Positions 3,151-25,475 are shown, counted from the first letter of the stretch. The stretch is 64,000 nt of DNA from Patescibacteria group bacterium (GCA_022564195.1 JADFLW010000007.1:3667-67666); one strand, 5' to 3'. Notes: a model not told the origin generated them from the letters alone. Numbers and translations: made by a program.

Positions 3151-3987
3151 TTATCTGGCTCTTCGGTCTTTTACAATTCGTTTATCCGAATACTTCTTTA
3201 CTTTCCTGGTCTTTTTTCCTAACGTCGGTTTTCCCCAAGGACTCTTGGGAGATGGCATCCCTATTCCCGAACGGCCCTCTCCACCACCGTGTGGGTGCGC
3301 TGCAGGATGCATGGCAACACCACGTACCGCAGGGCGGAAACCCATGAGACGGCGGCGTCCAGCTTTTCCGAGCTTTATTGTTTTCCACTCAATATTTCCG
3401 ACTTGGCCGATGGTCGCGAAACACCTGATATCTATGAGTCGATGTTCCTTGCTGGGCAGTCTTACCGTGGCGTATTTTCCTTCTTTGGATTGTACTGTCG
3501 CCGCCGTGCCAGCCCCGCGGACGAGCTGACCACCCTTTCCTGGTCTTAATTCTATGTTATGGATGGGTGTTCCAACCGGAATCTTGGCCAGTGGGAGGGC
3601 ATTTCCAACTTTAATCTCGGCATCTTCGGCCGCGATTACCGTGTCGCCTAGCTTAAGGTTTAAAGGGGCAAGCACGTAGCGCTTTTCTCCATCGGTGTAG
3701 TATACAAGAGCAATATTCGCGCGGCGATTGGGATCGTACTCTATTGCCATTACTTTTCCAGGAATCCCGTGTTTATCTCGTTTAAAATCGATGCGGCGAA
3801 GGAGCCTCTTATGCCCGCCACCCCTATGGCGAACGGTGATTTTTCCAGATACGTTTCTTCCACCAGACTTTTTGACCGTACTCTTGATTAGCGTCTTCTC
3901 AGGTTTTGCCTTGGTTATCTCGGCAAAATCAAGATCGCTTCGATGTCTTACTCCAGGACTGGTTGGTCTTCTCTTGCGTACTGCCAT
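3151..3987 (-). CDS. rplB: 50S ribosomal protein L2
   Basis: 278 aa with GGGHKRLLR and HPHGGGEGR motifs. Confidence 0.96.
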
Positions 3988-4283: not shown

Positions 4284-5035
4284 TTGCGTGTTTTCCTTGC
4301 TGTTTTTGTCCTCGTCTTTTTGGCCTTCCCACTCGGTGCTGGCGCTTTCTTCCTCTCCGGTTTTTTCTTCGTTGCTTGCTTGTGTTCCGTGGTTTTTGGC
4401 TTTTTTTCTAGAAACCTTTCTTCAATAGGCTTCACCGCGCTTTTCATGAGGATGATCATTCCGGCATTTAATACTTCGAAGGCATTTAGTCTCTTGGCAG
4501 ATAGCAGCTTGACTCCTTTGATATTGCGTGCTCCCCGAATGACCGAATCTGTGCCATCCGGAAGAATGATGGACAGTTTCTTCGGAGCTTTACTGGTTAC
4601 TTTTGTTACTGCTCTATACATTACCTTCGTTTTGGGCTCCAGTTTCTCAAGTCCATCCACGATAATCAGCTCTTTTGCTCCAGTCTTTTGGGTGAGAGCC
4701 GCGAACAGCGCTTTTCGCCTCATCACTTTGGACAACTTTAGCTTGTGTCGCTGGCTCCCAGTAGGGCCGTGGGCGATCCCTCCGCCAACGAAAATTGGTG
4801 CATAGCGGTCACCATGGCGCGCTCTTCCTGTACCTTTTTGTCGCCAGATTTTCCTTCCCGAGCCCTTCACTTCTCCGCGCCTTTTCACTTTTACCGTCCC
4901 TTGGCGCTGGTTCGCCAGGTAGACTCGAACCGCTTGTGCCAAAAGCTTCGGACTCGCCTGAGCGGCGAAAATTTTGTCGGGGAGTTTCACTCTCCCTGCC
5001 GATTTTCCGGTGGTATCCATGACTTTCATTTGCAT
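4280..5035 (-). CDS. rplD: 50S ribosomal protein L4 with Lys-rich C-terminal extension
   Basis: 251 aa whose L4 core has the motifs RQGT, KVKRRGEVKGSGRKIWRQKGTGRAR and HG. The last ~45 residues are K/R-rich low complexity. Confidence 0.93.
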   Translation of the reverse strand: MQMKVMDTTGKSAGRVKLPDKIFAAQASPKLLAQAVRVYLANQRQGTVKVKRRGEVKGSGRKIWRQKGTGRARHGDRYAPIFVGGGIAHGPTGSQRHKLKLSKVMRRKALFAALTQKTGAKELIIVDGLEKLEPKTKVMYRAVTKVTSKAPKKLSIILPDGTDSVIRGARNIKGVKLLSAKRLNAFEVLNAGMIILMKSAVKPIEERFLEKKPKTTEHKQATKKKPERKKAPAPSGKAKKTRTKTARKTRK

Positions 5036-5043
5036 ATGCTCTT

Positions 5044-5811
5044 TTACTTTTTTTGCTTTTTATCCTCTTTTTTCTTGCTCTCTTTTTTCTCTTTAGCTTT
5101 CTTCTCCTCTTTCTGTACAGGCTTCTCCTCGTATAGTCCCTCGAACTTTTTTGCCTTCCCAACTTTCTTGATTGTCACGAGGCCGTTGCGTGATCCGGGA
5201 ACTTGTCCTTTCACCCATACCTCTCCTTCTTTTGTCGTTTTTAAAACCAGCAGATTGCGGACTGTGACTTTCAGATTTCCCCCATGACCCGCCATTTTCT
5301 TCCCTTTAAAAACGCGCCCTGGTGTTGTGGTTTGTCCTATTGAACCGGGGGCGCGTGCTCTATCTGACTGTCCGTGGGTTCGAGGTCCTCCTTTAAACCC
5401 CCAGCGCTTCATGACTCCGGTGAATCCCTTCCCATGACTGGTTCCAGTGACATTCACCAGGTCTCCTGCTGCAAGGACTTGGTCGGCGGTAATCACATCC
5501 CCAACGTTGAGGGTTGTATCTTGATCGGACTCAAGCCTCATTTCTCTCAAGACCCTTGGCATTTCCCCTTTGGCTTTTTCTGGTTCTGGCCATGTTGCCC
5601 TTTTCAGGTGTCCAGCGAGCGGTTTGGTCAGCTGTTTCGCTTTTTTTTCTCCTATGCCTAATTGAATAGCCCTATAGCCATCTTTTTCAATGCTTTTCAC
5701 TTGGGTTACCAGACAAGGCCCCGCTTGGATTTTGGTCACCGGAATTCGCCTTCCATCCGCAAGGAACGCTTGAGCCATTCCCTTCTTGGTTCCTACTATT
5801 GCATTGATCAT
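5044..5811 (-). CDS. rplC: 50S ribosomal protein L3 with Lys-rich C-terminal extension
   Basis: 255 aa (GTKKGMAQ..., FTGVMKRWGFKGGPRTHGQS). The C-terminus is KEEKKAKEKKESKKKEDKKQKK. Confidence 0.93.
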   Translation of the reverse strand: MINAIVGTKKGMAQAFLADGRRIPVTKIQAGPCLVTQVKSIEKDGYRAIQLGIGEKKAKQLTKPLAGHLKRATWPEPEKAKGEMPRVLREMRLESDQDTTLNVGDVITADQVLAAGDLVNVTGTSHGKGFTGVMKRWGFKGGPRTHGQSDRARAPGSIGQTTTPGRVFKGKKMAGHGGNLKVTVRNLLVLKTTKEGEVWVKGQVPGSRNGLVTIKKVGKAKKFEGLYEEKPVQKEEKKAKEKKESKKKEDKKQKK

Positions 5812-5987
5812 GGTTTCTTATTCCTTATCCTATGATTCGTTCGCAACAAAAAACGATCCGGAGGGATCGCTTCTTACGTCTACCCAATCCGTCTTCTCTT
5901 GCTCTCTTATTTCGATTTGCGTCGAGTTCCCAACATTACCTCCTCTTTGCAGAAGATCGGGAGTAGACTTATGCTATCGATGGCAGT

Positions 5988-6296
5988 TCACATCTTTATT
6001 TCAATGCCTACACCTGCTGGTAGATCAAGATGCATGAGCGAGTCTATGGTTTTGTTGGTTGGCTCCATAATGTCAATAAGGCGTTTATGTGTCAGCATCT
6101 GGAAATGTTCTCTTGCATCTTTGTCTGTATGCGGACTGGTCGTTACGGTAATGAGTTTCCGGTCCGTCGGTAGCGGAACCGGACCTACGACCTTCGCTCC
6201 GGTTGCAAGAGCCGTTTCCAAGATTTTGGCTGCTGCTTCATCAATTACTCGATGATCGTAGCTTTTTAAACGTACACGTATTCTGCCCTTCGGCAT
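5988..6296 (-). CDS. rpsJ: 30S ribosomal protein S10
   Basis: 102 aa ([28 protein letters not shown]), an S10 signature. Confidence 0.95.
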
Positions 6297-6308
6297 ACTT
6301 TTAAATTA

Positions 6309-6330
6309 AGGCAGCTTTCTCTGGCTGCCT
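6309..6330 (-). terminator. GC-rich hairpin (7-bp stem aGGCAGC/GCTGCCt) between the tuf stop and the rpsJ start, followed on the minus strand by UAAUUUAAAAGU; a possible attenuator or partial terminator
   Basis: The inverted repeat is read directly from the sequence. It sits downstream of tuf and immediately upstream of the S10 ATG. Confidence 0.3.
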
Positions 6331-6350
6331 CCTATCTGTTTTATATTCTG

Positions 6351-7547
6351 TTAAGCTAAAATTTTTGTGATGATACCTGCTCCAATGGTGTGACCACCTT
6401 CCCTGATCGCAAATCGCAGGTTCTGCTCCATGGCGACTGGTTGAATGAGCTCAATGGTCATTTTTGCATTGTCGCCGGGCATCACCATCTCGATTCCTTC
6501 AGGTAGCTTAATTTCTCCTGTGACATCGGTGGTTCGGATGTAAAACTGCGGCTTGTATCCAGAGAAGAAGGGCTTCTTGCGACCGCCTTCTTCTTTTGAG
6601 AGGATGTAGACCTCAGCATCGAACTTTGTGTGGGGGGTCGCGGTTCCCGGCTTTGCCAGGACTTGCCCGCGTTCTACCTCCTCCTTTTCGACGCCCCGGA
6701 GCAATATCCCAACGTTATCGCCGGCCTGGGCTTCATCAAGGATTTTTCTAAACATCTCCACCCCTGTTACCACGGTTTTTTTCGTGTCACGGATGCCGAC
6801 GATTTCGAGCTCATCATTCACCGCAATTTTTCCACGCTCGACTCTTCCGGTGACCACGGTCCCCCGCCCTTTAATGGAAAAGACATCCTCAATTGGCATG
6901 AGGAATGGCTTTTCCATATCCCTTTTTGGAGTGGGGATATACTCGTCCACTGCCTTCACGAGTTCAAGAATTGACTTTTGTGCCTCTTTATCACCTTCAT
7001 AGGCCTTGAGCGCCGATCCCCGAATGACCGGAATTTCGTCTCCAGGAAACTCGTACTTCGTCAAAAGCTCCCTTATTTCGAGTTCCACCAGATCAAGAAG
7101 TTCGGGATCATCCACTGCGTCAATTTTGTTTAAGAACACCACGAGCGCAGGGACGTTGACTTGGCGAGCAAGGAGGACATGCTCCCTGGTCTGTGGCATT
7201 GGACCGTCCGTGGCTGCCACAACCAGAATCGCTCCATCCATTTGGGCGGCTCCTGTGATCATGTTTTTAATGTAGTCCCTGTGTCCAGGTGCATCGATGT
7301 GCGCGTAGTGGCGTTTTTCCGTTTCGTACTCCACGTGTGTGATGTTGATGGTGACACCGCGTTCTTTCTCTTCAGGAGCGTTGTCGATGTCATAGAAATC
7401 CATCGCCTTCGTTGGATTTCCTGATTGGGCAGCGAGCACCTTGGTTATTGCCGCTGTCAAGGTTGTCTTTCCATGGTCGACATGACCAATGGTTCCGACA
7501 TTGATGTGCGGTTTGGTGCGTTTGAATTTTTTCTTTGCTTCGGCCAT
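6351..7547 (-). CDS. tuf: elongation factor Tu
   Basis: 398 aa with [15 protein letters not shown] and NKID G-domain motifs. Confidence 0.98.
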
Positions 7548-7594
7548 GAATGCCTCCGTATTATCTGATAATACCTAACGCCGTTTATTGTTCG

Positions 7595-9724
7595 TCATTT
7601 CTTTTTCTTGGGAGATTTCTGCTCTTTTTCTTTCTCTTCCTTGCCTTTGTTGATCAGGGTCTCGGTAACGTTTGCTGGCACTTCCCCATAATGGCTCGGC
7701 TCCATGTAATGGGATGCCCGCCCCTGGGTCATGCTTCTGAGTATTGTAGCATATCTTGAGAGTTCTGCCAAGGGAACCAGGGCAGTAATGATGCGGATTT
7801 TCCCCCTCTGCGCGGTTCCTAAGATTTGCCCTCTTTTGCTTGAAAGGTCTCCAATCACATCACCCATGAACTCTTCAGGGGCGGTGACTTCCAGCTTCAT
7901 GATCGGTTCAAGGAGCACCGGATCTGCTTGTTTGACCGCCGCCTGGAGTGCTGCTGAACCGGCGATCTTGAAGGCGATTTCTGAGGAGTCTACTTCGTGG
8001 TAGGTTCCGTCGTAGACCGCAACAAGCATATCCACGAGCGGGTGCCCCGCAAGCACACCATTCTCCATCGCTTCTTTGACCCCTTTTTCCACGGCTGGGA
8101 TGTATTCTCTGGGGATTGCACCGCCGGCGACCTCGTTTTTGAATTCGAACCCTTCGCCGCGTGTCTTAGGCTCGATTCGAAGGAAGCAGTGACCATATTG
8201 GCCACGACCTCCGGTTTGCCGGATGTATTTTCCTTCGGCTTTGGCCACCCGTTTAATTGTTTCTTTGTAGGCGACTTGGGGGGTTCCGGTGTTTGCTGCC
8301 ACGCGAAATTCTCGCTTCATCCTGTCGACGATAATTTCAAGGTGAAGCTCCCCCATACCAGAAATGAGTGTCTGGCCAGTATCAGAGTTTACTTTTATTT
8401 TGAATGTTGGGTCTTCTTCAGCAAGGCGCGACAGCGCCACACCCATCCGTTCTTGGTCAAGCCTTGTCTTCGGCTCTATCGCCAATGAAATCACGGGCTC
8501 AGTGAATTCTATTCCTTCAAACAGGATAGGGTGAGTTTCGTCAGTCAATGTGTCTCCCGTTGTTGTATTTTTTGCCCCGACTACCGCAACAATCTCTCCC
8601 GCTTCAGCGTCTGCGATTTCTTCTCTTTGGTTGGCATGCATCAGAAGCAACCTTCCGACTCGTTGTTTTTCCCGTTTGGCCACGTTGGTGATATAGGAGC
8701 CAGACTTCAGCCTTCCTGAGTAAATCCGGATGTAGGTGAGCCTTCCAACATGGGGGTCAGTTTGCACCTTAAATGCCAAGGCTGCGAACGGCCCGTCGGG
8801 ATCAGGTGTTCTTACCTCCTCTTTACCGGTTTTGGGATTCACGCCTTTTGCTGGCTCAACATCGAGTGGACTTGGCAAGTAGTCAATGATCGCATCGAGA
8901 AGCAGCTGGACTCCTTTGTTTCGAAGGGATGAGCCACAAAACACTGGAACCAAATCATTGCGGATGGTTGCGGCTCTCAACGCTTGTTTCAGCAGTATTA
9001 CTGATGGCTCTTCGTCTTTGAGGAACTTTTCTAAAAGATGCTCATCGGTTTCGGATATTTTTTCGATGAGCGCACTGCGCACTTTTTCCACCCTGTCTTT
9101 CAAATCATCCGGCACTTCACTTATCCTGTACTTGGCTCCTGTCTCGTCTCCTTCCCAAATAATTGCTTTGCGTTCTAAAACGAGAACCACACCCTTAAAG
9201 CTGGATTCCACCCCGATTGGCACGACCATCACTGCGGTGCTTGCCCCCAATTTTTCTTCTATTTCTTTTACTGTGTTCTGGAAATCTGCCCCGAGTTTAT
9301 CCATTTTATTGGCGAAGCAAATTCGAGGAACTCTGTATTTGTCTGCCTGGCGCCAGACGGTTTCCGATTGGGATTGAACGCCTTCCTCCGCATCGAGAAT
9401 CGTCACTCCGCCATCAAGAACACGCAACGAGCGCTCGACCTCAGCAGTGAAATCGACGTGCCCTGGGGTGTCAATGATGTTGATTCTGTGTGAACCAGTG
9501 AGTAGCGTGCCTTCTAATTGAGGGTTCCAAAACGTGGTTGTTGCTGCTGAGACTATCGTGATTCCGCGTTCCTTTTCCTGTTCCATCCAGTCCATTTGGG
9601 TTGTGCCTTCATCGATGTCCCCAAGCTTGTATGTCTTTCCCGTGTAATAGAGGATCCGCTCTGTGGTTGTGGTTTTTCCCGCATCAATGTGGGCAATGAT
9701 CCCAATGTTACGGATCTTGTCCAT
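7595..9724 (-). CDS. fusA: elongation factor G
   Basis: The likely true start is the ATG at 9724 ([20 protein letters not shown]). The 781-aa ORF in the track adds a 72-aa upstream extension. The protein has a Lys-rich C-terminal tail ([15 protein letters not shown]). Confidence 0.95.
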
Positions 9725-14000: not shown

Positions 14001-14726
14001 GAGCGACCCCATTTTTGTTCTTTTCACCATGTCTTTGACCGCTTTGAATACTTCTTCGGCGTTTTGTTGCTCGCCAATCAACGCTTCTTTCAGGCTGGCA
14101 ATTTCCTGTTTGGCTTTCAGTCTGCGCTCTTGGATTGTCAAGTCTTTTTGCTCAGGTGATTTGACCTTTTGTCTGATTTCTGCAAGATCCTTTTTTAATT
14201 TCTCTTGACTCTTTTTGATGCTCCCCTGCGTTTCTTTCTCCAACTCGTCTTTCTTTTGCTTGAGTTTGTCATCTAGTCTTTCGAAGATTTTATCCTGCTC
14301 CTTATCATCTATAGCAAGGACAATGTACTGGGCAAAATAGATCACTGATGCAAGATTTCTCGGAGAAATATCAAGAAGAAGAGAGAGTTTTGAAGGCGTC
14401 CCCTTAAAGAACCAGACATGAGCGACGGGTGTCGCGAGGTTGATGTGTCCCATTCGCTCCCTGCGGACTCTGCTCTGTGTTACTTCAACACCGCATTTGT
14501 CGCAGATGATTCCTCTGTAGCGAATGCGCTTATACTTGCCGCAGTAGCACTCCCAATCCTTTGTCGGACCAAAAATCCTCTCGCAAAACAGCCCATCCTT
14601 TTCCGGCTTGAGCGTTCGATAGTTTATCGTTTCTGGTTTGATCACCTCACCATGCGACCAGGATAGAATATTCTCTGGAGAAGCAAGCTTGATTTGGAGT
14701 CCTACGAAATCTACGATGTTTTTCAT
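11028..14726 (-). CDS. rpoC: DNA-directed RNA polymerase subunit beta'
   Basis: 1232 aa with the N-terminal zinc-binding [23 protein letters not shown] and the NADFDGDQM catalytic motif. Confidence 0.98.
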
Positions 14727-17700
14727 GCTTTTTTGCTCTCCTTTTTCTCACCCTGCTGGTCCTCTCGTGCCTGTTGTTTCTTATCTTGAGGCTGGGCTTC
14801 TTTCTCGCCTGCCTCTTGTTGTTTCGGCTCCGCTTGCCCGTCTTCTTCTGTGATTTCGACAACGTCTTCCTCTACCACTCCAGTGGTAATAACCTCCAAC
14901 CCCAGGCTCTGCAGTTCTTTCACAAGCACTTTAAACGATTCCGGGACTGTCGATTCTGGAATCTCAGTACCCTTCACAATCGCTTCGAAGGCTTTGGCTC
15001 GTCCAATCACATCGTCGGATTTGATCGTGAGCATTTCTTGCAGAGTTCTCGCTGCGCTGTGTGCTTCAAGCGCCCAAACCTCCATTTCTCCTAGTCGCTG
15101 GCCGCCCATCTGCGCTTTTCCACCCAGTGGCTGTTGGGTGACGAGTGAATAGGGCCCGGTTGAGCGGGCATGGGTTTTGTCTTCAATCATATGGATCAGT
15201 TTTAAAATATATCCAATCCCAACGACTGTCTCCTCTTCAAATGATTTTCCTGTCCGTCCATCGTACAACTGCACTTTTCCCGAGATGGGGAGGTCTGCCT
15301 TTTTCATTTCGCTGTTGATTGTTGTTTCAAGGATTTTTTCAAATACCGGAGCGGCGATCGTATACCCCAGTTTGCTGGCTGCCCATCCCAAGTGGGCCTC
15401 CAGAAGTTGTCCAAGATTCATTCGTGCAAGAACGGAGAGTGGGGAGATGATGATATCAACCGGTGTTCCGTCTTCAAGATAGGGCATGTCTTCAACTGGC
15501 ACAATCCTTGAAATCACCCCTTTGTTTCCGTGTCGTCCGGCAAGTTTATCTCCGACCGTCACTTTTCTGATTCGGGCAACCCGCACCACGACTTTCCTGT
15601 TCACTCCGGGATCAAGCTCATCCCCTCTATCACGGTCTAAGATCTTGACATTAATGACCGTCCCGCTTTCCCCATGTGGCATGCGCAAGGATGTATCCCG
15701 CACCTCTCGGGCTTTTTCTCCGAAAATGGCTCGGAGCAATCGTTCCTCTGCGGTGAGCTCTGTCTCGCCCTTTGGTGCAATTTTTCCGACCAAGATGTCG
15801 TTTGGTCCCACTTCGGATCCGACGACGACAATGCCATCTTCACCCAAGTTTCTCAATTCAGCTTCACCGACATTTGGAATGTCACGCGTTAACTCTTCTG
15901 GGCCCAGTTTCGTATCCATGACTTGGGCTTCATGCTCACTGATGTGTATTGAGGTGAGGATGTCTTCCCGAACCAATCGCTCTGAGATAATGATGGCGTC
16001 TTCGTAGCCTAATCCATCGAATGACATGTAGGAGATCAATAAATTCTGCCCTAAGGCAAGCTCTCCCTGATCAGAGCATGGTCCATCAATGATTAACTCG
16101 CCCTTTTGTACTTTCTGGCCAGTTACCACTTGTGGTCGTTGTGAGTAACATGTTGATTGTGCGGAGCGCGAAAACTTTTGGATGTGATAGATCTCTTTAT
16201 CTCCGTCAACCTCAAGGTATTCACGGGGATTTTGGTTCGCGTCACGTTGCATCTCCTTGCGTTGGCTTCTATCGACTTTTATTTCGATCCTGGTCGCGTC
16301 GGCGAACACTACACTTCCGCTGTGCCAGGAACGAATTGAGCGCTCCATGGCTTCGACGACGTCTTTCTCCATGCCGGTGCCGACAATGGGTGCTGTTGGT
16401 TTTATGAGCGGCACCGCTTGGCATTGCATGTGGGTTCCCATGAGCGCCCGGTTTGCCTCATCGTGTGAGATGAATGGAATGAGCGAAGCTGATGTTCCCA
16501 CCACTTGCCGCGAGACGACATCAACGAAATCTACTTGCTCAACAGGTGCTTCCAAGAACTTTCCCTTGTAGCGGACCGGCACCCATTCTTCAGTGATAAT
16601 GTTTCTCTTATCGGTTTTAACTTCCGCGTGTGTAATGTAGTAGTCTTCTTCATCATCTGCGGGAAGGTAGATGATTTCATCGCTTATTCGCATCTTTACC
16701 TTCCCATTCTTTCCTATTTTTTCGACCTTTTTATAGGGCGCTTCCAGAAAGCCATATTCGTTTACCCTGGTATACAAGGTCATGTAGTTCACCAGTCCAA
16801 TGTTGGGTCCTTCTGGAGAGCGGATCGGGCAAATACGTGAGTATTGGCTCGAGTTGATGTCGCGCATTGAGAATGATGCCCGTTCTCTCGTGACACCTCC
16901 GGGACCCATCACTGAGAGGCGCCTTAGGTTATCTATTTCGCTTAGTGGGTTGGTTTGATCTAGGATGGTGGAAAGCCTGTTTCTGCGGAAGAATTCGGAG
17001 ATCGTCGCGATAATGGGGCGGGCATTGACGAGGGAGGCGGGAGTGATCTTCTCATCGACCTTCGTGAGGCTCATCTTCTCGCGGATTGAGCGCTCAAGTC
17101 TCAATAGTCCAATTCGGAATGCGATTGTGGCTACCAGTTCGCCAATACGGCGAACGCGGCGGTTCGCAAGGTGGTCGATATCATCAACCTTTCCTTGACT
17201 GTTTTGCAATCCAACAAGATATCGTATTGTGGCAATGATGTCTTCGACGTTGAGCGTGTGATTGGTTTCCTCGTTTGGAATGTTGAGTCCCAACCGCTTG
17301 TTTAGTTTGTAGCGGCCAACTTTTGCCAGATCATAGCGCCGGGGATCGAAAAATAGTTGGTGAAGGAATTGTTGGGCACTTTCAAGTACGGCTGGTTCGC
17401 CGGGACGCATTTTCTCGTAAATTTCTATGATTGCCTCTTCCTTGGTTTTGGATGGATCTTTCTCAAGTGTTGATTGAATGTACGGATGATCTGGGTCGGT
17501 ATCTGTATCGCGGAAATATTCTAGCAGCTGATCATCGTCCAGCGGCTTTATCCCACGCAAAAGCACTGTTACCGGAAATTTCCTGTGGCGGTCGATTTTG
17601 ACCGTAATCACGTCATTGCGCGCTACTTGGAATTCTAACCATGAACCCCGAAGCGGTCTGAGCTCCGCTTTATAGAGCATCCTTCCCGTTGTGAGATCCA

Positions 17701-18136
17701 TCTCTCCTGAGAAAAATACCCCTGGTGAACGTACCAGTTGATTGACAACCGCTCTTTCAATTCCGTTAATAATAAATGTACCCGTCTGTGTCATCTCGGG
17801 GATGTCGCCCAAAAACACCTGTTGCTCTGTCGTTTCTCCAGTTTGTAGGTTCGTTAATTTGGCTTCGACTTTGAGGGGCATCTCGTAGGTTATTCCCTTC
17901 TCCTTTGCATGCGAGGGGGTGTATTTCGGTTCTCCAAAGTGGTGTTTCCCAAATTCAAGCTTCCAGTTTTTTCCAGTGAAATCCTCGATTGGAGAAATAG
18001 CCGCTAGTGCTTCCAGTATTCCTTTTCTTGTGAACCACTCGTATGAATCTTTCTGCACCGCAAGAAGATCCATTGTCGGGAGTTTCTTTTTTTCGGTGCC
18101 CCAATACTGGCGGGTTTTCATGTCTTTTTTAACCAT
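14723..18136 (-). CDS. rpoB: DNA-directed RNA polymerase subunit beta
   Basis: 1137 aa with conserved beta-subunit regions. It overlaps the rpoC start by 4 nt. The acidic C-terminal tail is Q/E/K-rich. Confidence 0.98.
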
Positions 18137-18426
18137 CGTATGAGGTGAATGCTGTCTTTTGCGTGAGGGCCTTCACGCTAATTTCCCGAATGCGAACAGA
18201 ATAACCCGGGTCTTACCCAGGTTATTCATGTCATTTCTTATCTTATTTGTGGATGGTGGTTTTATTGAAAGATGAGACGTGCACTGTTGTGTCGGTGATG
18301 GTCTTTCCTTTTTTAATTCACAAAATAGACGCACAGAAGTACGCCTACTCTATAGACGGTGCAGTCATCCTAGCAGAGGCCTGGATGTTTGTCAATGGTT
18401 TGGATTTGAGCTCGAGCTAATGACCA

Positions 18427-18633
18427 TTACTCAAAGTCATCTGGGCTCATGTTAGAAAGCATGTCCCATTGCTCTTTAAGGCTCATGGTTGCGGCAGCTT
18501 GAGCGCCCACATGTTCTGCAGTTGCAGCTGTGAATTCTTGCTCGATGGATATTTCCGTAGCTGGGCTTTCGCTGACTGGATCTCCTGATGAAGTCGCACT
18601 GGGTGCCTCGTGATTCAGAGCCATACCAGTCAC
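18427..18633 (-). CDS. hypothetical small acidic protein (68 aa); may be non-coding
   Basis: ORF immediately downstream (6 nt) of the RHH-NTase gene, with no recognisable domain. Confidence 0.25.
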   Translation of the reverse strand: MTGMALNHEAPSATSSGDPVSESPATEISIEQEFTAATAEHVGAQAAATMSLKEQWDMLSNMSPDDFE

Positions 18634-18639
18634 CTCCTC

Positions 18640-19458
18640 TCATCGCTTTTCTTTTTTCCAGCGTTTGGCGGCCTGTTGACGGTCTTTTGCCCTTGAAACA
18701 TCAAACCAAATGCCCTGAAAGAGAAATGCACTCAATTCCCCCATCTTCGCCAAACGAGGAAAGACGTCTCGCTCGAGGCTCGACGGCGTTTTTCTGGGTA
18801 TCATATTCAAGACCTCTGGTTCAAACAGATACACCCCAGTATTGACGATGCTAATACCCCGCTCGCCTTCTTGAGCCAGAAAGTCGGTAATTTTATTGCC
18901 CTGAAGCAAAACTTTGCCATATTTTTTCTCGGCAATTCGAGGCTTAACGCCGATGGTGGCCAATGAGTTTTCATCTTGATGCACTCGAACGAAATCATTC
19001 AGGTTAAGATCGGTTAAGACATCTCCGTGTACCACCAGAAAAGGATTGTCTTTCAAATATTCTTTGGCTCTCTTTATGGCTCCCGCAGTGCCCAGCAGCT
19101 GTGTCTCACTGACATAGTTGATGGTCACGCCGATAGTGGACCCGCTGTTGAATTCACGCTTGATACGTTTCTCGAAGGGTCCGGCGCAGATAATCAGCTT
19201 GGTGACGCCAAATTTTTTCAAGTGGTCGATCATCAGTGACAGGAGGTGTCGCTGATGGATTCGGATCAAGGGTGGTGGGGTCTTGGTTTTGGGTTTGCCG
19301 CCAGCCAGAATCACTGCGGTATCCACCATTGGCTCGAGGCTTTTGCGAATCAAGTGTTCGATCGCATGAGAGCGGTTTCTTATGTTTTTGCCATCGATGA
19401 TCCTGTCGACCTTCTTTAAGATTTCTGATGACAAGGTAATGGTTAAACGTGATTTCAT
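18640..19458 (-). CDS. ribbon-helix-helix domain fused to a sugar-phosphate/MobA-like nucleotidyltransferase
   Basis: The N-terminus (RLTITLSSEILKKVDRIIDGKNIRNRSHAIEHLIRKS) is CopG/RHH-like. The remainder (VILAGGKPKT..., LLGTAGAI, VVHGDVL) resembles the NTP_transferase fold. Its ATG directly abuts the upstream stop codon. Confidence 0.6.
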   Translation of the reverse strand: MKSRLTITLSSEILKKVDRIIDGKNIRNRSHAIEHLIRKSLEPMVDTAVILAGGKPKTKTPPPLIRIHQRHLLSLMIDHLKKFGVTKLIICAGPFEKRIKREFNSGSTIGVTINYVSETQLLGTAGAIKRAKEYLKDNPFLVVHGDVLTDLNLNDFVRVHQDENSLATIGVKPRIAEKKYGKVLLQGNKITDFLAQEGERGISIVNTGVYLFEPEVLNMIPRKTPSSLERDVFPRLAKMGELSAFLFQGIWFDVSRAKDRQQAAKRWKKEKR

Positions 19459-20526
19459 TTATAACTTACTCGCCATAACTCTGGCCATACTTAGAGCCCC
19501 AGTTATGGGACCAGGTATATTAGGATACCAAGCACTTATCGTTGCATGTCTTCCTTCGGCTATGGTCTCTGTAGGATCTATAATGCACTGGAGTTTCTGG
19601 CCGACAAACATGGTGCTCACAGCATATTCAGGAGCAATCCCCATGATCCCTTGTAAGGGTCCTTGGGCATGTTCCGTCAGCAAATCCATTAACTTTTCTG
19701 TTGTTAACTGTGTCCCTTGTCTCATGGTGACATCTAAATCTAAAAGTGAAATATTATCCACCGGGACTCTCCTTGACCTTATTTTGACGCTCACTCCTCG
19801 ATCAGCAAGTTGTGGTAATAATCTCAGAACTCCCTCTTGTGCACCGGTGGTTGTGGGAATAATATTCACGGTAGCGGCTCGGCTTCGTCTGGGATCTTCG
19901 TGTCTGTTTGGTCTATCAATTAACTGGTTACTCCCAGTTCTAATATGAGTGCTTACACCAAATATGCGCTCTACACCAAAATGCTCATCCAAGATTTTGA
20001 TTGGGTATACAGCGCAGTTCGTCGTGCACGATTCTGTGGCCACAACGGGGTGCGATGAAGGATCCCATTGATTTTCGTTTATTCCAATACAAAAAGAGGG
20101 AATTTTATCTTTTGCTGGGGAGGCGATAACTACTGCAGCAGCTCCAGCCTGATTGATGTGCATCAGGGCTTCGTCTAAGGAATGCATCGTTCCAGTAGCT
20201 TCCAGAGCAATTGCGACTTGGTTTTCAGTCCAGGCTCTTAGTTCACGTACATTGATCAACTGTTCATTCTCATCTCTTCTATACTCAAATTGCTGGAAAG
20301 GAATTCTTCCTCCATCTATAATAATCTCGCCTTCAGAAGCAGTAACGTTTTTTACAGGTCTTTCGGGGTAATGTGAATTCCATCTTAACGTTTCAATATA
20401 TACCCTGGCTGGCTTTCTACTCGCTAACGCTGCAAGGTCTAATCCTTGTCCATCTTCAAGAAGTTGGTGAATGGCTTCAGTTGCTGTTGCTCCTAAACCG
20501 ATGATTCCAACTCTTTCTGGATGCAT
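19459..20526 (-). CDS. glyceraldehyde-3-phosphate dehydrogenase-like (type I GAPDH/E4PDH family), divergent
   Basis: Catalytic motif ESCTTNC and VSTHIRTGSNQLIDRP. The likely start is the ATG at 20526 (MHPERVGIIGLG...); the track ORF begins at a TTG at 20595. GC of sampled stretches is about 40-45%, below neighbouring genes. Confidence 0.7.
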   Translation of the reverse strand: MHPERVGIIGLGATATEAIHQLLEDGQGLDLAALASRKPARVYIETLRWNSHYPERPVKNVTASEGEIIIDGGRIPFQQFEYRRDENEQLINVRELRAWTENQVAIALEATGTMHSLDEALMHINQAGAAAVVIASPAKDKIPSFCIGINENQWDPSSHPVVATESCTTNCAVYPIKILDEHFGVERIFGVSTHIRTGSNQLIDRPNRHEDPRRSRAATVNIIPTTTGAQEGVLRLLPQLADRGVSVKIRSRRVPVDNISLLDLDVTMRQGTQLTTEKLMDLLTEHAQGPLQGIMGIAPEYAVSTMFVGQKLQCIIDPTETIAEGRHATISAWYPNIPGPITGALSMARVMASKL

Positions 20527-20612
20527 ACTGACAACAACCGGCTCTAAGCGAGAGTCCTTTCTTGCGTTCCTAGGCTCCCGATGGGAGGCCGCCAATTTTC
20601 ATACGTTATCAT

Positions 20613-20640
20613 ATTGTATGATAAATTCATACTTTGTCAA
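20613..20640 (-). promoter_or_regulatory. sigma70-like promoter: TTGACA, 16 nt spacer, TACAAT, reading toward the GAPDH-like operon
   Basis: Reverse complement of plus 20635-20640 is TTGACA and of 20613-20618 is TACAAT, with a 16-nt spacer. Confidence 0.45.
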
Positions 20641-20697: not shown

Positions 20698-21711
20698 TTA
20701 TTTGTTGAGGTATTTTGCGATGTTGGCGTTGTGCTCTTCGATGGTTTCGGCATAGTGGAGCTCTCCTTTTTTATCGGAGATGTAGTACCAGTACTTGGTC
20801 GCTTTCTGGTTAGCGACGGCCTGTATTGAGGCGAGCGAGGGGTTACAGATCGGCGCTGGAGGCAAACCTGCTTGTTTGTAGGTGTTGTAGGGCGAGTTGA
20901 TTTTAAGATCCTCTCTTGTTAAAGATTTCTTCCACCAGGACTGCTCCTGAGCTTGGAAGCCAAGGGCGTATTGGACCGTTGCATCTGCCTGCAGTGGCCA
21001 GCTGGCGCGCAACCTCCTTATGAAAATTCCCGCGACCAGGGGTCGATCTTTGTTGGCTCGCGCTTCCCGCTCGACGACAGAGGCAATAATCAGCGCTTGG
21101 TCCAATGAAAGACCCTGACGCTTAATGGAAGCACGCAAAGTGGCATCCACCTTTTTTTCGAACGTTTCAAGCAGCAGTTCAGCAATCTCTCTCGCTTGCA
21201 TCTTCTTTGGAATGAGATATGTGTCAGGGAAAAGGTACCCCTCTTTTCCCTGGGTGGCTTGCAAAAATTCTTCCCTGTTCAATGAGGCGCCCGCGTTTGT
21301 GAGTTGCTTTTCGAGCTCATCCGCTATCTCTTCCCGTCGCCATCCTTCTATCAGCGTTACTTTTACGTCGGCTCTCCCAACGGTTAAGGCACTGGCTATT
21401 TGCTGCGTTGCCATGGCTTTGCTTAACTCAAACTCCCCAGCCTGGATGCGCTTTGCCAAGCCGCCGGTTATCAGTACGATCCTGAAGGCAGCTTTGGTAC
21501 GAATGATATTTTTATCTTTGAGACGCTTGCTGATGCTATCTATAGATTCACCCCTCCTAATAGAAAAGGCGACCAATTCAGCTGATGCTGAATCGACTGG
21601 GGAAGCCGCCCATTTCCACCAGAACACTGCTCCTGCCAATGCTATGATCACTGTGGTCATAAGAAGCCATTTAGAGTTTGCGAATTTCTTTTTCCTTTTC
21701 ATTTTCCTCAT
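20698..21711 (-). CDS. mltG: endolytic murein transglycosylase MltG (YceG family)
   Basis: N-terminal TM helix followed by a YceG-like domain (KVTLIEGWRREEIADEL, YLFPDTYLIPKK, SVVEREA). The likely ATG is at 21711; the track begins at a TTG at 21717. Confidence 0.8.
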   Translation of the reverse strand: MRKMKRKKKFANSKWLLMTTVIIALAGAVFWWKWAASPVDSASAELVAFSIRRGESIDSISKRLKDKNIIRTKAAFRIVLITGGLAKRIQAGEFELSKAMATQQIASALTVGRADVKVTLIEGWRREEIADELEKQLTNAGASLNREEFLQATQGKEGYLFPDTYLIPKKMQAREIAELLLETFEKKVDATLRASIKRQGLSLDQALIIASVVEREARANKDRPLVAGIFIRRLRASWPLQADATVQYALGFQAQEQSWWKKSLTREDLKINSPYNTYKQAGLPPAPICNPSLASIQAVANQKATKYWYYISDKKGELHYAETIEEHNANIAKYLNK

Positions 21712-21723
21712 TGACAAAATTTA

Positions 21724-22401: not shown

Positions 22402-23133
22402 TTAATCGACAAGTGCGGCGGTGATAATGCCCCGACGAAGATATGTTCCTGGTGGCGTGCAGGTTATGAGACGAAGATATTCGTTGTCATACGGTTGTTC
22501 TAACACGGAGATGTCGTCCGGTTTAACTTCGACTTTATCTATCACCTGATACGTGTAGGTTATGCCGTCGAATTTGACGATGATCTCATCGCCCATCTCG
22601 AGCGTGGGGATGAGGGAAAAGATTGCCATATAATTGGTTGGGCTGAAGAACTGAGGCAGGATGGAATGGCCGAAAATAACCGGTGCTCCAGTTTCCCCCG
22701 GAAGCGCGGTTCCGGGGTAGTGGATAAGGCTTTTTTTTAGATCCTCTCCATTTATTTCTACAACAGCATCTTTGATGTTGAATTTTGGAATCGAAAGGGT
22801 GTAATGGGTAATTCGGGATTCCGTCTTTCTGGAAAATTTGGCTTTCGGAAACCAATTTTGTGGACGAGTCAAATCCTGGTTGATCGTGCTTTCCAAGCTG
22901 TCCTCTTTTCCTGAAACTGGAACAGGGCTTAAAAATTCATACTGTTTCAGAGTGGGAGCAGTGAAGAGTTCATAGGAGAGAATCGGCCATAGCACATTTG
23001 CAACCAGCACTATTCCGGATATGATCAGGCCTCTAGATAGTACAGACATCAATCTCGAACTGACTCTGACCTTCCGACTTGTCTTCGGGCTTGCTGTTTG
23101 CGGATGGGCTTTGACGTAACGGTACAATGTCAT
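22402..23133 (-). CDS. sortase (transpeptidase)
   Basis: N-terminal membrane anchor, catalytic His (VIFGHS), the TLxTC-type motif LRLITCTPPG, and a downstream Arg (LRRGII). Confidence 0.8.
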   Translation of the reverse strand: MTLYRYVKAHPQTASPKTSRKVRVSSRLMSVLSRGLIISGIVLVANVLWPILSYELFTAPTLKQYEFLSPVPVSGKEDSLESTINQDLTRPQNWFPKAKFSRKTESRITHYTLSIPKFNIKDAVVEINGEDLKKSLIHYPGTALPGETGAPVIFGHSILPQFFSPTNYMAIFSLIPTLEMGDEIIVKFDGITYTYQVIDKVEVKPDDISVLEQPYDNEYLRLITCTPPGTYLRRGIITAALVD

Positions 23134-25475
23134 TCGTCTCTTTCTATCCTGATTTCGATTGTGATGTTCTCAGCTTTTCTGGGGAAAGTTTTTAGTCTTG
23201 CTGGCAGCGCTTCCGGTGTGATCTTGACCTCTGCCTTAGAAAAATTCGGCAACGATCCCAGGTACTTTTCGACAAGCTGTGGATGCTTTCCAGTGAGCTT
23301 GCGTTTTATCTCCTGTTCTTCAATTCTAGGAATCAATACCGCCTTGTAGACAACCGTTATCCTTGCCAATCCATCCTGGAACTCCACTTCTTTCACTTCT
23401 GCGAAACTTTCATCTTCCTGGAGCCTGAAGTCTTGTGGGATCGCCTCGCTTGATGCAAGGCGCAAAATCTGGTTGTAGTCTTCGTCATCATATGCTAGCG
23501 TTGTTATTTTCGCCTTGATTTTCGCTGAGACAGTCTGGGCCTCCTCTCCGACTTCTCCACTTACTTCGCTTGATAGTACTTCTATTTCTACCCCATCAAC
23601 GAGTACTTTTCTTCCAGGTCCTTCTTGACTTTCCAACTCGTTTGCCGCTTTCTGTTTCAGCTCTTGTTTGAGCTGGTTCAGGAGGTCATCGATATCGTTT
23701 TTGGCAATGGCCTGAATCTCTCGACTCGTCCCGCCGCTGATATTGCTCTCGTTTTTGGCATCGTATGAAGCAGTGGAAAACGCCTTCAAGGTAAAGTCCG
23801 TGTCGGCGGGAAGGTTGTATTCTGTTCCGATCGCCGTTGCTGTTATCGATGCTTTGGCCTTCCCGAATGTCGTCGTCACGGCCTCATCTGACTCCTGGGA
23901 ACTGGCCGAAGCCACCGATACCTCGCTATCTAGAGAAAATGCGAGTTTGTTTGGTCCAACGAGCATTGTCCCTGCAGCGAATGTTTTTGCTGCGGATGTC
24001 TTGTTATAGACCGATACTTCCCCTTTGGCTTTTTCTCCGACCAGTTTGCTGCCCGTCGTCTCTTTTTCTTTTTCTCCTTCGAGTTCCATCCCGACGATTT
24101 TTCCAGGTATCCGATTTTCTGCGGCAACAACTTGGTTGCTCTTAGGATCGATGGTGATGATGAGCTCCGTTTCGAGCGTTTTGGGTCTGACGTAGAGCAC
24201 GATTTGGGCTCTTGGTATTGTCCAATATCCGTACATTACCGCTGCTGCGCTGAGCACAAAGAACGCTATCACAATACCAATCGTCATCTTTAGCCTCGAG
24301 TCTAACAGGTCGCTTGGCCGAGGAATCCTTAATCTTGGAAGACGCATCATGCGGGGAATCATGGATGTGAGACTTATCAATTTCGCGCTCCATGCTTCTT
24401 TCCCTTCGGGGGTCTCAACACTTACTTCTTCTTTCGCTTGTTCTTCTGGGCTCGGTGGTGTTCTCGGTTTTGCTTCCTCTTCTTTGGGTTTCTCTTCTTT
24501 GGGTTCCTCTTTCTTCGCAACTTCTTGGGCAACATCGACATCAGTTTTGAATCCTATCTCCTCTGCTGTGGGAATCGTTTCTTCTGGAAGCGCTTCTTTT
24601 CCTTCCACCTCTGGTGGAGCCTCTTCTTTTTCCTCTTTCTCTTTTTCTTCCTCTTCGATTATTTCGAATCCTAACGCCTTGGCAGCCTCCGCCCCTCCCC
24701 CAATTGCCACGGCCTTGATTGTCACCTGCTTCTCCAACACCTCAACTTTTGGAAAATGGAGAAACGGGAGCTTCTCAAGCCAGTCGCAGGAGAGAAGGTT
24801 TTGCTTGAGACTTTCGAGATCAAGCGTGCCATTGAAAAGCAACATTCGTGACGGCATATTCTCCTCTATCTCAAAACGCGCCAGTCCTTCTTCAACATCG
24901 GCACCAATGTCTTCGCTTCGGGATACCGTTTGGCTTCCTAGAATTTTCCCTACGTTTACGAGGGTAACCTGAATCTCTGATTCGGTCACAAGAATCAAGA
25001 TTGCGGTTGGTGGCGTGCCTTCTTGCTGTTTGAGTAAATGAACGATGGCTTCGCTGGTCACAACGAATCCTATTGGTTCGAATTCAAGCTTTTCCGAAAT
25101 CCGTTTGAGGATTTTGGCATAGTCCTTTGTAATGGTCTCTCCCGCCACCCAACTTTCTTGCAGGCCGAAGATGACTTTGTTCGGTTCTGGTTCTGCATCG
25201 GCAAGGGCTTTCTCGAGTGATGCGTCAATTGCCGTGAGCAGCGAGTCAATTGAGTCTTTTTCTGTCTTCCATTCTTCTGTTGCTCCTAACTTTACGATTT
25301 GCGTTTGGCCATCCACAACCTGCCAGACAGCAGTGGTCACGGTTTCTGTCCCGATTTCAATTGCCAAGAATTGCTCTTGCGTTTTTTCTTTCGTGGTGAA
25401 TTTTGATAAGATGTTCGGAAGATTCATATTTTCACCAACACAAATCCACTCTTTAAGCGGTTGTCTATTTTTCAT
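23130..25475 (-). CDS. actin-like ATPase (PilM/FtsA-like) fused via an E/K-rich linker to a PilN-like TM segment and a large extracytoplasmic domain
   Basis: N-terminal LAIEIGTETVTT...VAIGGGAEAAKALGF matches the actin-fold start and C-terminal GGG motif of FtsA/PilM. An acidic/lysine low-complexity region (EEEEKEKEEKEE...) follows. Then RPSDLLDSR plus a TM helix (IGIVIAFFVLSAAAVMY) resembles the PilN N-terminus, and a ~370-aa C-terminal domain follows. Confidence 0.5.
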   Translation of the reverse strand: MKNRQPLKEWICVGENMNLPNILSKFTTKEKTQEQFLAIEIGTETVTTAVWQVVDGQTQIVKLGATEEWKTEKDSIDSLLTAIDASLEKALADAEPEPNKVIFGLQESWVAGETITKDYAKILKRISEKLEFEPIGFVVTSEAIVHLLKQQEGTPPTAILILVTESEIQVTLVNVGKILGSQTVSRSEDIGADVEEGLARFEIEENMPSRMLLFNGTLDLESLKQNLLSCDWLEKLPFLHFPKVEVLEKQVTIKAVAIGGGAEAAKALGFEIIEEEEKEKEEKEEAPPEVEGKEALPEETIPTAEEIGFKTDVDVAQEVAKKEEPKEEKPKEEEAKPRTPPSPEEQAKEEVSVETPEGKEAWSAKLISLTSMIPRMMRLPRLRIPRPSDLLDSRLKMTIGIVIAFFVLSAAAVMYGYWTIPRAQIVLYVRPKTLETELIITIDPKSNQVVAAENRIPGKIVGMELEGEKEKETTGSKLVGEKAKGEVSVYNKTSAAKTFAAGTMLVGPNKLAFSLDSEVSVASASSQESDEAVTTTFGKAKASITATAIGTEYNLPADTDFTLKAFSTASYDAKNESNISGGTSREIQAIAKNDIDDLLNQLKQELKQKAANELESQEGPGRKVLVDGVEIEVLSSEVSGEVGEEAQTVSAKIKAKITTLAYDDEDYNQILRLASSEAIPQDFRLQEDESFAEVKEVEFQDGLARITVVYKAVLIPRIEEQEIKRKLTGKHPQLVEKYLGSLPNFSKAEVKITPEALPARLKTFPRKAENITIEIRIERDE

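Follow-up and report, generated by a model that had tools for sequence, protein, structure and literature searches.

A divergent GAPDH and a putative NikR-like, nucleotidyltransferase-derived repressor in a probably self-regulated operon upstream of rpoB of a Patescibacteria group bacterium

What is the role of a three-gene cassette that stands directly upstream of rpoB, at a place where rplJ and rplL are missing? The question is posed by a Patescibacteria group bacterium, known from a metagenome-assembled genome (MAG) at NCBI, of which a stretch of 64,000 nt was analysed (the window; coordinates are window positions). The cassette consists of three co-directional open reading frames (ORFs), all on the minus strand, which encode a divergent glyceraldehyde-3-phosphate dehydrogenase (GAPDH), a ribbon-helix-helix (RHH) domain fused to a nucleotidyltransferase (NTase) fold, and a small acidic protein. 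It was compared with the contigs and loci of relatives, which carry L numbers. We propose that the cassette is probably an inherited, self-regulated central-carbon operon, in which the divergent GAPDH is co-expressed with a NikR-like, NTase-derived repressor. A single sigma-70-type promoter would drive the divergent, catalytically complete GAPDH, the translationally coupled regulator and the small acidic protein. Repression of the operon by its own product would come from the RHH domain, which is proposed to bind the four GTATGA/TCATAC hexamers spread over the -35/-10 spacer, the -10 hexamer and the start site. The C-terminal sugar-1-phosphate NTase fold, its phosphate-binding catalytic elements lost, would serve as the ligand sensor, with a nucleoside diphosphate (NDP)-sugar or a sugar phosphate as the candidate co-repressor. 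The hexose/NDP-sugar pool would in this way set how strongly the triose-to-hexose route (gap, pgk, fba, glpX, gpmI, pgm/pmm) is expressed.

A NikR-type domain fused to a degenerate nucleotidyltransferase

The RHH-NTase is encoded at 18640-19458 (272 aa, minus strand) and starts with an ATG immediately after the TAA of the GAPDH gene. Residues 1-45 (19324..19458) make up a NikR-type RHH DNA-binding domain, as identified by RHH_1 (21.0 bits against the Pfam cutoff of 20.5), by NikR models and by invariant residues. The NikR models match residues 3-42 only, with E values of 6e-6 to 1.5e-5 and scores far under their cutoffs. The best solved relatives of residues 1-45 are the NikR structures 2bj1 and 1q5v/2hzv. 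When the regulator sequence SRLTITLSSEILKKVDRIIDGKNIRNRSHAIEHLIRKSL was aligned with E. coli NikR, the beta-strand R-x-T-I-T-L was identical and the helix read NRSHAIE against NRSEAIR. In the window the motif is RLTITL...NRSHAIE, and R4, L5, T6, I7, T8, L9, R29, S30, A32 and E34 are invariant across the family. The strand and helix motifs of the NikR N-terminus are therefore present, whereas the C-terminal nickel-binding ACT-like tetramerisation domain is absent, residues 46-272 having the NTase fold. In the NikR-DNA complex of Schreiter and colleagues (2006), the base contacts are reportedly made by beta-strand Arg and Thr residues (R3/T5/T7).

The remainder of the protein (residues 46-272 and the stop, 18640..19323, minus strand) is an NTase-fold domain with degenerate catalytic motifs, the proposed ligand sensor. 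PF00483 (NTP_transferase) matches with 97.4 bits (1e-27), which places it in the GT-A-like NTase fold. The AlphaFold 2 (AF2) model has a predicted local distance difference test score (pLDDT) of 87.8 and matches GMPPB, VTC1, tlr0611, HddC and MurU. Residues 46-272 gave a best sequence match at E 3e-34 and a Foldseek match to GMPPB at E 2e-21 with a TM of 0.72; the closest kin is GDP-mannose pyrophosphorylase. The signature G-x-G-T-R-L-x-P-L-T-x-x-x-P-K, which binds the phosphates of the nucleoside triphosphate (NTP), is replaced in the window by LAGGKPKTKTPPPL. HMMER alignments to 7d72_K, 7whr_B, 8yre_D and 7x8j_A have a 6-residue gap at the signature, where the columns are variable across the family. 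In the subfamily of the window protein (subfamily A), LAGG, seven variable residues and PAL stand where active enzymes have GGxGTRLxPLTxxxPK, a deletion of 6-8 residues that removes the Arg and the Lys that hold the NTP phosphates. The E-K-P lysine, which binds the sugar 1-phosphate, is also gone, with DFLAQEGER in its place, and subfamily A has gained an invariant VKPR. Both metal-binding aspartates (xGD and WxD) are kept as HGD146 and FQGIWFD253 and are nearly invariant. The PF00483 match begins only after the signature (profile position 18-22) in several members of subfamily A, yet at position 2 in the window protein.

Sister forms have retained what subfamily A has lost. Subfamily B (L067-L085, L112) carries GGxGxxMRPxTxExPK and EKP (F-x-EKP) alongside the RHH domain, with L073 as an intermediate. 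The L149 protein is fully canonical (GGRGTRLRPLTDKVPK, FVEKP) and likewise has the RHH domain; its locus (L149 2015-5349) reads GlpX < hexamer-pair operator > RHH-NTase > PGM/PMM. L149 is apparently an active enzyme-repressor version in an NDP-sugar synthesis operon. The motif-retaining L085, L112 and L149 all carry the operator described below. Judged from these alignments, the motif loss is confined to the subfamily of the window protein, the sister forms being canonical. Since the signature loop and the EKP lysine are lost, catalysis by the window protein is doubtful; we think it somewhat more probable than its contrary that the domain acts as a sensor only, and that it is still catalytic has a minor chance. 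The motif-keeping sister forms beside the motif-deleted subfamily A suggest a series that began with a "trigger enzyme", at once repressor and enzyme of NDP-sugar synthesis, and led to a sensor.

The architecture is not confined to this genome. About 892 protein clusters match the RHH-NTase from end to end, typically with 270-285 aa and 50-69% identity, and 469 loci were confirmed among GTDB contigs, with one genome per species. The hosts are Pace-, Woese-, Gottesman- and Roizmanbacteria and other Patescibacteria, as well as Chloroflexota, Acidobacteriota (Thermoanaerobaculia), Planctomycetota and Zixibacteria. The proteins go by the names "sugar phosphate nucleotidyltransferase", "NDP-sugar pyrophosphorylase family protein" or "ribbon-helix-helix protein, CopG family". 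In a full-text literature search for the architecture, no paper that describes it was found. A preliminary description of the locus, made from the sequence alone, had reported an N-terminal RHH domain on an NTase, which the two Pfam matches bear out, and had called the fusion one that is not recognised from characterised enzymes. A new fusion is not supported, the architecture being common, although annotated in generic terms only. The RHH-NTases appear to be an uncharacterised but widespread regulator family that was previously unrecognised. As to the host names, many GTDB records (L008, L009, L021, L022 and others) hold a Patescibacteria-type locus under the title "uncultured Pseudomonadales/Gammaproteobacteria bacterium"; from their gene content, the MAG taxonomy looks mislabelled.

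The GTATGA operator and the genes linked to it

The operon promoter, TTGACA-16-TACAAT (20640-20613, minus strand), matches the consensus at 11/12 positions, with the -35 hexamer at 20635..20640 and the -10 hexamer at 20613..20618 separated by a 16-nt spacer. TTGACA is also found in the aligned promoters of L003, L088, L091, L089, L092 and L184. Four hexamers on the same strand extend over the spacer, the -10 and the start region of this promoter (TTGACA-AA-GTATGA-ATTTA-TCATAC-A-ATATGA-TAAC-GTATGA). Hexamer 1 (GTATGA, 20627..20632) lies inside the -35/-10 spacer and forms with hexamer 2 (TCATAC, inverted, 20616..20621) a GTATGA-N5-TCATAC pair, whose exact match is unique in the window. Hexamer 2 overlaps the -10 hexamer and is kept in L003, L088, L089, L091, L092, L001, L002 and L184. 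Hexamer 3 (ATATGA, 20609..20614) and hexamer 4 (GTATGA, 20599..20604) are a direct repeat with a 10-bp period, the latter around the expected transcription start. The 23-nt pattern TCATAYARTRTGAYAAMGTATGA occurred once in the 64-kb window and was not seen in 100 shuffles.

RHH repressors bind such repeat arrays co-operatively. The site bound by E. coli NikR is GTATGA-N16-TCATAC (PMC7055735). The NikR half-site is thus present in the predicted operator at 20599-20632, at a spacing unlike N16. Near-identical arrangements were found 5' of gap in L003, L088, L091 and L184, 5' of the regulator gene in L089 and L092, and 5' of the divergent GAPDH gene in L001 and L002. Across subfamily A, either GTATGA-N4-GTATGA (10-bp period) or the N5 inverted pair stood 20-60 bp 5' of the regulator start in 45/68 loci, which come from Patescibacteria, Chloroflexota, Acidobacteriota, Planctomycetota and Zixibacteria. 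For a control, random 160-bp windows from the same loci were searched, and 1.2% held such a hexamer pair. Because the hexamers occur in both orientations and inside the non-transcribed spacer, they point to recognition at the DNA level. The economical reading is that the RHH-NTase would bind here and autoregulate its own operon. Self-regulation through the RHH domain had been suggested for this locus before, and the NikR-type hexamers in the promoter, conserved across phyla, support the suggestion.

The genes that accompany the regulator were then compared. In 26/77 GTDB loci, the regulator gene is on the same strand as and directly adjacent to PGK, GlpX (fructose-1,6-bisphosphatase), FBA (class II aldolase) or iPGM (cofactor-independent phosphoglycerate mutase), as confirmed by Pfam. 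The recurrent orders are PGK>regulator>GlpX>FBA, regulator>GlpX>FBA, regulator>iPGM and regulator>small ORF>PGK>GlpX>FBA. The hexamer pair stands 5' of pgk (L054, L059, L065), glpX (L022, L026, L149), gpmI (L100) and gap, and at eight Pacebacteria-type loci 5' of a divergently transcribed phosphogluco/phosphomannomutase gene (pgm/pmm). Other recurring contexts are glycan-related; one has the order epimerase< regulator> PMT-type and GT4 glycosyltransferases, and another is that of Gottesmanbacteria, given below. What these contexts share is the path that leads from triose phosphates to hexose phosphates, sugar-1-phosphates and glycans.

Some loci showed further features. At L026 2380-2480, the GTATGA pair and the start of pgm/pmm are separated by two tandem copies of a hairpin-containing element (TTTGTACCT..CG..hairpin..CGGGTCCAAAGT), which had no Rfam match at the gathering threshold. 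In Gottesmanbacteria (L070, L072, L075-L077, L079, L080 and L084, ~4300-7830), the subfamily B gene follows 3' of three genes that, as read from their sequence, may code for mevalonate kinase, diphosphomevalonate decarboxylase and UPP synthase. Further 3' of it come type IV secretion pilin-like genes (Pfam-confirmed for L083). A GTATGA pair was not found at the Gottesmanbacteria subfamily B loci.

GAPDH, small proteins and inheritance of the cassette

The first gene of the cassette encodes a divergent phosphorylating GAPDH of 355 aa (19459..20526, minus strand) that is probably NADP(H)-capable. Its NCBI entry (MCH7951681.1), like that of the RHH-NTase (MCH7951680.1), is named "hypothetical protein". 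The ATG start (MHPERVGIIGLG) was preferred over a mechanically listed TTG at 20595, and gene calls in independent assemblies give the same 355 aa. Of the Pfam models, Gp_dh_C passes (1e-26, 93.9 bits), but Gp_dh_N, with 12.5 bits, stays under its cutoff of 31.7. With TIGR01534, the type I GAPDH equivalog, the protein scored 185.9 bits where 367.2 are required, and so misses the curated family threshold. The Epd models were far below their cutoffs (NF010058 with 125 bits against 539, TIGR01532 with 118 bits against 530) and weaker than the GAPDH models. On the choice between GAPDH and E4PDH, the scores favour GAPDH, though none of these equivalog models reaches its cutoff. Alignment to the invariant columns showed the complete catalytic set of type I GAPDH (Cys149, His176, T179, R195, T208-G209, R231, N313), within the conserved motifs SCTTNC (ESCTTNC), STHIRT (His176, Thr179), DPRRSRAA, TTTGA, RRVPV and WYPN.

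The cofactor site is altered. The N-terminus reads GIIGLGATATEA, and the near-invariant GINGFGRIGR is replaced by GIIGLGATAT (a GxGxxA pattern). At the end of beta-2, ND (Asp32) has become AS, with RK next (ASRK). The NAD-specific signature, which consists of GINGFGRIGR and Asp32, is therefore missing. WYDNEWGY has changed to WYPNIPGP, and short insertions are found in the S-loop and before RVP. The AF2 model (pLDDT 88.2, predicted TM score 0.87) has a confident Rossmann domain and only the S-loop uncertain; Foldseek aligned it with many GAPDH structures at a TM of 0.82-0.85 over ~352 columns. The best solved structures by sequence are of the GapB type (4dib, 8wwz), and the best structural matches include NADP-using photosynthetic forms (1nbo, 3zcx) and NADP-engineered mutants. 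With these NADP- or dual-cofactor enzymes (Bacillus GapB 4dib/8wwz, photosynthetic GapA 1nbo and 3zcx), the window protein shares the replacement of the acidic D32, the basic residues next to it and the retained catalytic residues. It differs from them in its identity of just 28-34%, in GIIGLGATAT, WYPNIPGP and the insertions in the S-loop and before RVP, and in its sub-cutoff GAPDH scores. From the residues and the model, we infer that the enzyme works as a phosphorylating GAPDH and uses NADP(H) or both cofactors. The intact SCTTNC motif and the altered NAD-binding N-terminus had both been noticed in the preliminary description, as had the divergence of the enzyme, which does not cluster with ordinary housekeeping GAPDH.

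An exhaustive HMMER search of 1.84 billion cluster representatives returned one close cluster (P0123, 50%), all others having an identity of 37% or less. The clade is thus very rare, and its sequence ranks the protein among the most divergent GAPDHs in the databases. The window protein is only 28-32% identical to the GAPDHs that take its place in syntenic relatives; these are themselves divergent, with 39-48% identity to each other. In a neighbour-joining tree, which has long branches, it groups with P0122 and P0123 and not with the GAPDH of the syntenic relatives. Its two relatives at L001 and L002 sit after a class II aldolase-like gene. The window enzyme may be either a fast-evolving ortholog or an in-situ replacement by a paralogue.

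Ahead of the GAPDH start, no obvious Shine-Dalgarno sequence is seen. A short GC-rich hairpin followed by TTGTTGT is found by eye just 5' of the first start codon of the operon in the window (20527-20560), in L003 (~3780-3817) and in L092 (~5900-5935). A conserved leader element is not supported, the window fold being no better than that of shuffled sequences (z -0.56).

The third gene (18427..18624, minus strand) is a small acidic ORF of 65 aa from its ATG, which ends in WDMLSNMSPDDFE and is preceded by a strong Shine-Dalgarno sequence, GAGGAGGTGA, at 18630-18639 on the same strand. It is called as a gene in independent assemblies as well and is barely conserved overall, and profile scans gave no family match for it. 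ORFs 3' of the regulator in L003, L088 and L091 share with it a C-terminal motif, S-[NS]-[ML]-S-[PS]-[DE]-D-[FH]. This reads WDMLSNMSPDDFE in the window and WGHYSNMSPDDH in L091, both up to the stop, WEHMASLSSEDFP in L003 and AFTSSLSPDDFP in L088. In Chloroflexota, Acidobacteriota, Planctomycetota and Zixibacteria (L006-L048; e.g. L010 7822-8001 and L044 4089-4268), a different small gene lies directly 3' of the RHH-NTase. Its product of 33-78 aa (~60) has a variable N-terminus and a near-invariant extreme C-terminus, D-L-L-G-D-[FY]-S-E-Q-T-G-A-x-F-G, and occurs in at least 200 clusters, all named "hypothetical" and without a Pfam match. A hidden Markov model of the DLLGDFSEQTGAFFG motif did not detect the Patescibacteria ORFs, so the window ORF and the DLLGDFSEQTGAFFG peptides from outside the Candidate Phyla Radiation (CPR) were treated as positional analogues only. 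The product of the small ORF may act on or with the regulator, as its modulator or partner, or may be a substrate.

Had the cassette been acquired, as was initially supposed? The order sortase, RuvX, 66-aa ORF, YceG, GAPDH, RHH-NTase, small ORF(s), rpoB, rpoC recurs in L003 and L088; in contigs with the conserved order, the NTase is 65-68% and rpoB 85% identical to that of the window. The GAPDH>RHH-NTase pair, with stop and start overlapping or abutting, also occurs within other flanks (L091, L184). In L089 the regulator stands ahead of rpoB without GAPDH, beside a restriction-modification insertion. Because the gene order is conserved in relatives, the cassette is best taken as a vertically inherited, stable feature of the lineage. 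The insertion in L089 (3286-5848), and one in L090, occupy the place where relatives have GAPDH 5' of the regulator. They contain MvaI/BcnI-like genes and a LexA-S24-methyltransferase fusion, and in L090 a DDE transposase adjoins the regulator.

The composition does not bear out the low-GC cassette (40-45% against 50% or more in its neighbours) of the preliminary description, windowed and per-gene values showing no island. In 1-kb windows over the cassette, the GC fraction was 0.454-0.465, within a window-wide range of 0.437-0.539 and a mean near 0.48. Taken singly, neither the NTase gene (GC 0.473, third-position GC, GC3, 0.549) nor the small ORF (GC 0.508) stands out. The one exception in the cassette is the GAPDH gene (GC 0.443, GC3 0.354, z -2.95), whose GC3 is the lowest of 43 genes. 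The GAPDH genes of relatives show the same dip in GC3 (L003 0.25 against 0.38-0.42 in neighbours, L088 0.28 against 0.36-0.40, L001 0.25 against 0.44). Since the dip recurs, it is a property of the gene across lineages and not a mark of recent import; most simply, it would reflect a codon-usage bias.

The surroundings of the cassette were also inspected. A YceG/MltG-like gene (20698-21717, minus strand) lies directly 5' of the promoter. On the other side, rpoB (14723-18136, minus strand) is followed by rpoC. A second promoter-like site, TTGACA-17-TAGGAT (18367..18395, minus strand; 10/12 matches, TG-extended), which lies after the cassette and ahead of rpoB, suggests that rpoB is independent of the cassette promoter. 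The rpoB leader also holds a perfect hairpin, AATAACCTGGGTAAGACCCGGGTTATT, at 18199-18225. The TTGACA-16-TACAAT promoter, the TAA-ATG junction where the GAPDH stop abuts the NTase start, and the lack of rplJ-rplL before rpoB had all been read correctly in the preliminary description; homologues of rplJ, rplL, rplK and rplA were found nowhere in the 64 kb. Scans of the window for tRNAs and with Rfam revealed no RNA element, and tblastn no further glycolytic gene. Upstream of the sortase gene, a 781-aa protein (23130-25475) has a long Glu/Lys/Pro-rich low-complexity centre and is 70% identical in L003.

Rival readings, known systems and the meaning of the family

Is the window protein, then, a trigger enzyme, that is, an active sugar-1-phosphate NTase that also binds DNA, in an operon that makes and regulates an NDP-sugar branch? 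Canonical-motif members with RHH domain and operator do exist: L149, with its GGRGTRLRPLTDKVPK and FVEKP motifs, has PGM/PMM next to it and is divergent from GlpX, and subfamily B is similar. The window protein itself retains GTAGA, HGD and FQGxWFD. We nevertheless regard this reading as unlikely here, because the triphosphate-binding signature loop is deleted in its subfamily and the lysines of PK and EKP are both lost; the late start of the Pfam match in several relatives points the same way, its early start in the window protein does not. The loss of these motifs also bears on the horizontally acquired three-gene pathway to an activated sugar or glycerate derivative that was proposed in the preliminary description. 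The GC3 of the GAPDH gene, the minimum of the window, and its grouping with P0122 and P0123 would fit an import. Such an origin is very improbable, however, in view of the synteny in relatives, the normal composition of the NTase gene and the small ORF, the same GC3 dip in GAPDH genes at the orthologous position, and a promoter and operator native to the lineage. As for the pathway, the NTase catalytic motifs are gone and the GAPDH has an ordinary catalytic set.

A selfish or toxin-antitoxin-like module, in which an RHH protein and a small peptide are autoregulated without a metabolic role, would resemble what is seen outside Patescibacteria, where the regulator and the ~60-aa peptide form a stand-alone autoregulated pair among unrelated neighbours. 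This has very little to recommend it for the window, since PADLOC defence and toxin-antitoxin models match none of the three proteins nor the non-CPR pair, the peptide is missing from many loci, and the Patescibacteria gene is embedded among core metabolic genes that share its operator. We give hardly any credence to the idea that the GTATGA repeats serve another factor or an RNA leader element instead of the RHH-NTase. In its favour, true NikR has the very same half-site, and in most non-Patescibacteria loci the repeats lie 3' of the -10 hexamer and are hence transcribed. They co-occur, however, with the regulator gene across five phyla, are present in both orientations and in the non-transcribed -35/-10 spacer in the lineage of the window, and take the opposite orientation 5' of the divergently transcribed pgm/pmm gene; the fold of the window 5' untranslated region is not significant (z -0.56).

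Several observations weigh against a self-regulated central-carbon operon with a pseudoenzyme sensor. The strict hexamer pair is missing from 23/68 subfamily-A loci, including the PGK>regulator>GlpX>FBA group (L041-L046), and a relaxed operator search in that group and in Gottesmanbacteria turned up nothing convincing. In most phyla the hexamers sit just 3' of the -10 hexamer, which leaves room there for an RNA-level leader element. A scan of metagenome contigs for GTATGANAAAGTATGA gave mostly chance matches, with 5/135 sites beside family genes among the matches listed. Outside Patescibacteria, the neighbours of the regulator gene are unrelated. Finally, the GTAGA nucleotide/sugar-binding motif and the metal-binding aspartates are kept in the window NTase, which leaves room for residual or altered catalysis. 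Among the chance-looking GTATGANAAAGTATGA matches, those in L102, L128, L176 and L185 lie 16-67 bp 5' of related proteins of ~90-120 aa, which look HEPN/HI0074-like as read from their sequence; these matches are probably conserved coding sequence of the upstream gene, unrelated to the regulator.

Known regulators offer partial parallels to the proposed repressor. CggR, the central glycolytic genes regulator of Bacillus, is an autoregulated repressor in the gapA operon that responds to a sugar phosphate. The analogy with the window regulator, encoded together with gap, is functional and implies no homology: CggR belongs to the SorC family, and its fold and operator are unrelated. The trigger enzymes PutA and BirA each combine an enzyme with a DNA-binding domain (of the RHH type in PutA) that regulates the enzyme's own pathway. 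By this analogy, a trigger-enzyme state is likely ancestral for the family and is represented by L149 and subfamily B. Unlike PutA and BirA, the subfamily of the window protein seems no longer to be catalytic, and its enzyme fold is not related to theirs. With GDP-mannose pyrophosphorylase and its kin (GMPPB 7d72/7d74, VTC1 7x8j, tlr0611 8x7s, HddC, MurU), the window protein shares GTAGA and the xGD and WxD aspartates. Unlike them, it has a deleted or degenerate signature loop (GGxGTRLxPLTxxxPK) and no EKP lysine, carries an additional N-terminal RHH domain and lacks the C-terminal left-handed beta-helix domain. A re-use of the NTase fold as a regulatory ligand-binding module is seen in GMPPA and in eIF2B gamma/epsilon, which were among the matches (7d72_A, 6i3m_G). 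GMPPA, itself non-catalytic, is described as binding GDP-mannose and regulating its paralogue GMPPB (PMC11228364). These proteins, unlike the window regulator, act by protein-protein allostery, have no DNA-binding domain and lost catalysis by another way. NikR (E. coli 1q5v/2hzv, P. horikoshii 2bj1) shares the R-x-T-I-T-L strand, the NRSxAI helix motif and the GTATGA half-site (PMC7055735). It also shares the one-component logic of a DNA-binding domain with a C-terminal sensor and, as proposed here, repression at its own promoter. The C-terminus, however, is a GT-A-like NTase in the window protein and an ACT-like nickel-binding tetramerisation domain in NikR, the half-sites of the window family are spaced N4 (direct) or N5 (inverted) against N16, and the linked genes are of central carbon and hexose phosphate metabolism, not of nickel transport.

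For the family as a whole, we lean slightly towards the view that the NikR-type RHH domain and the NTase-derived sensor together define a family of one-component regulators that had gone unrecognised and whose GTATGA operator is deeply conserved. In many Patescibacteria, transcription for triose-to-hexose and NDP-sugar precursor supply would be controlled mainly by this family, which would also be found in Chloroflexota, Acidobacteriota, Planctomycetota and Zixibacteria. Its living members would trace the path from a bifunctional enzyme-repressor to a pseudoenzyme sensor, the latter often paired with a conserved micropeptide. Ranging from active-looking enzyme-repressor to motif-deleted sensor, the family would show clearly how an enzyme turns into a ligand-sensing pseudoenzyme. 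The re-use of the NikR recognition code (GTATGA) with a wholly different sensor bears on the modular assembly of regulators. RHH-NTases currently go under the names of sugar nucleotidyltransferase or hypothetical protein, and reconstructions of metabolism may therefore miscount them as NDP-sugar-forming enzymes. Transcriptional regulation in the CPR is almost uncharted; here the sequence by itself yields a regulator, its operator and a coherent set of targets (gap, pgk, fba, glpX, gpmI, pgm/pmm), which would provide a testable central-carbon regulon for organisms that resist culture.

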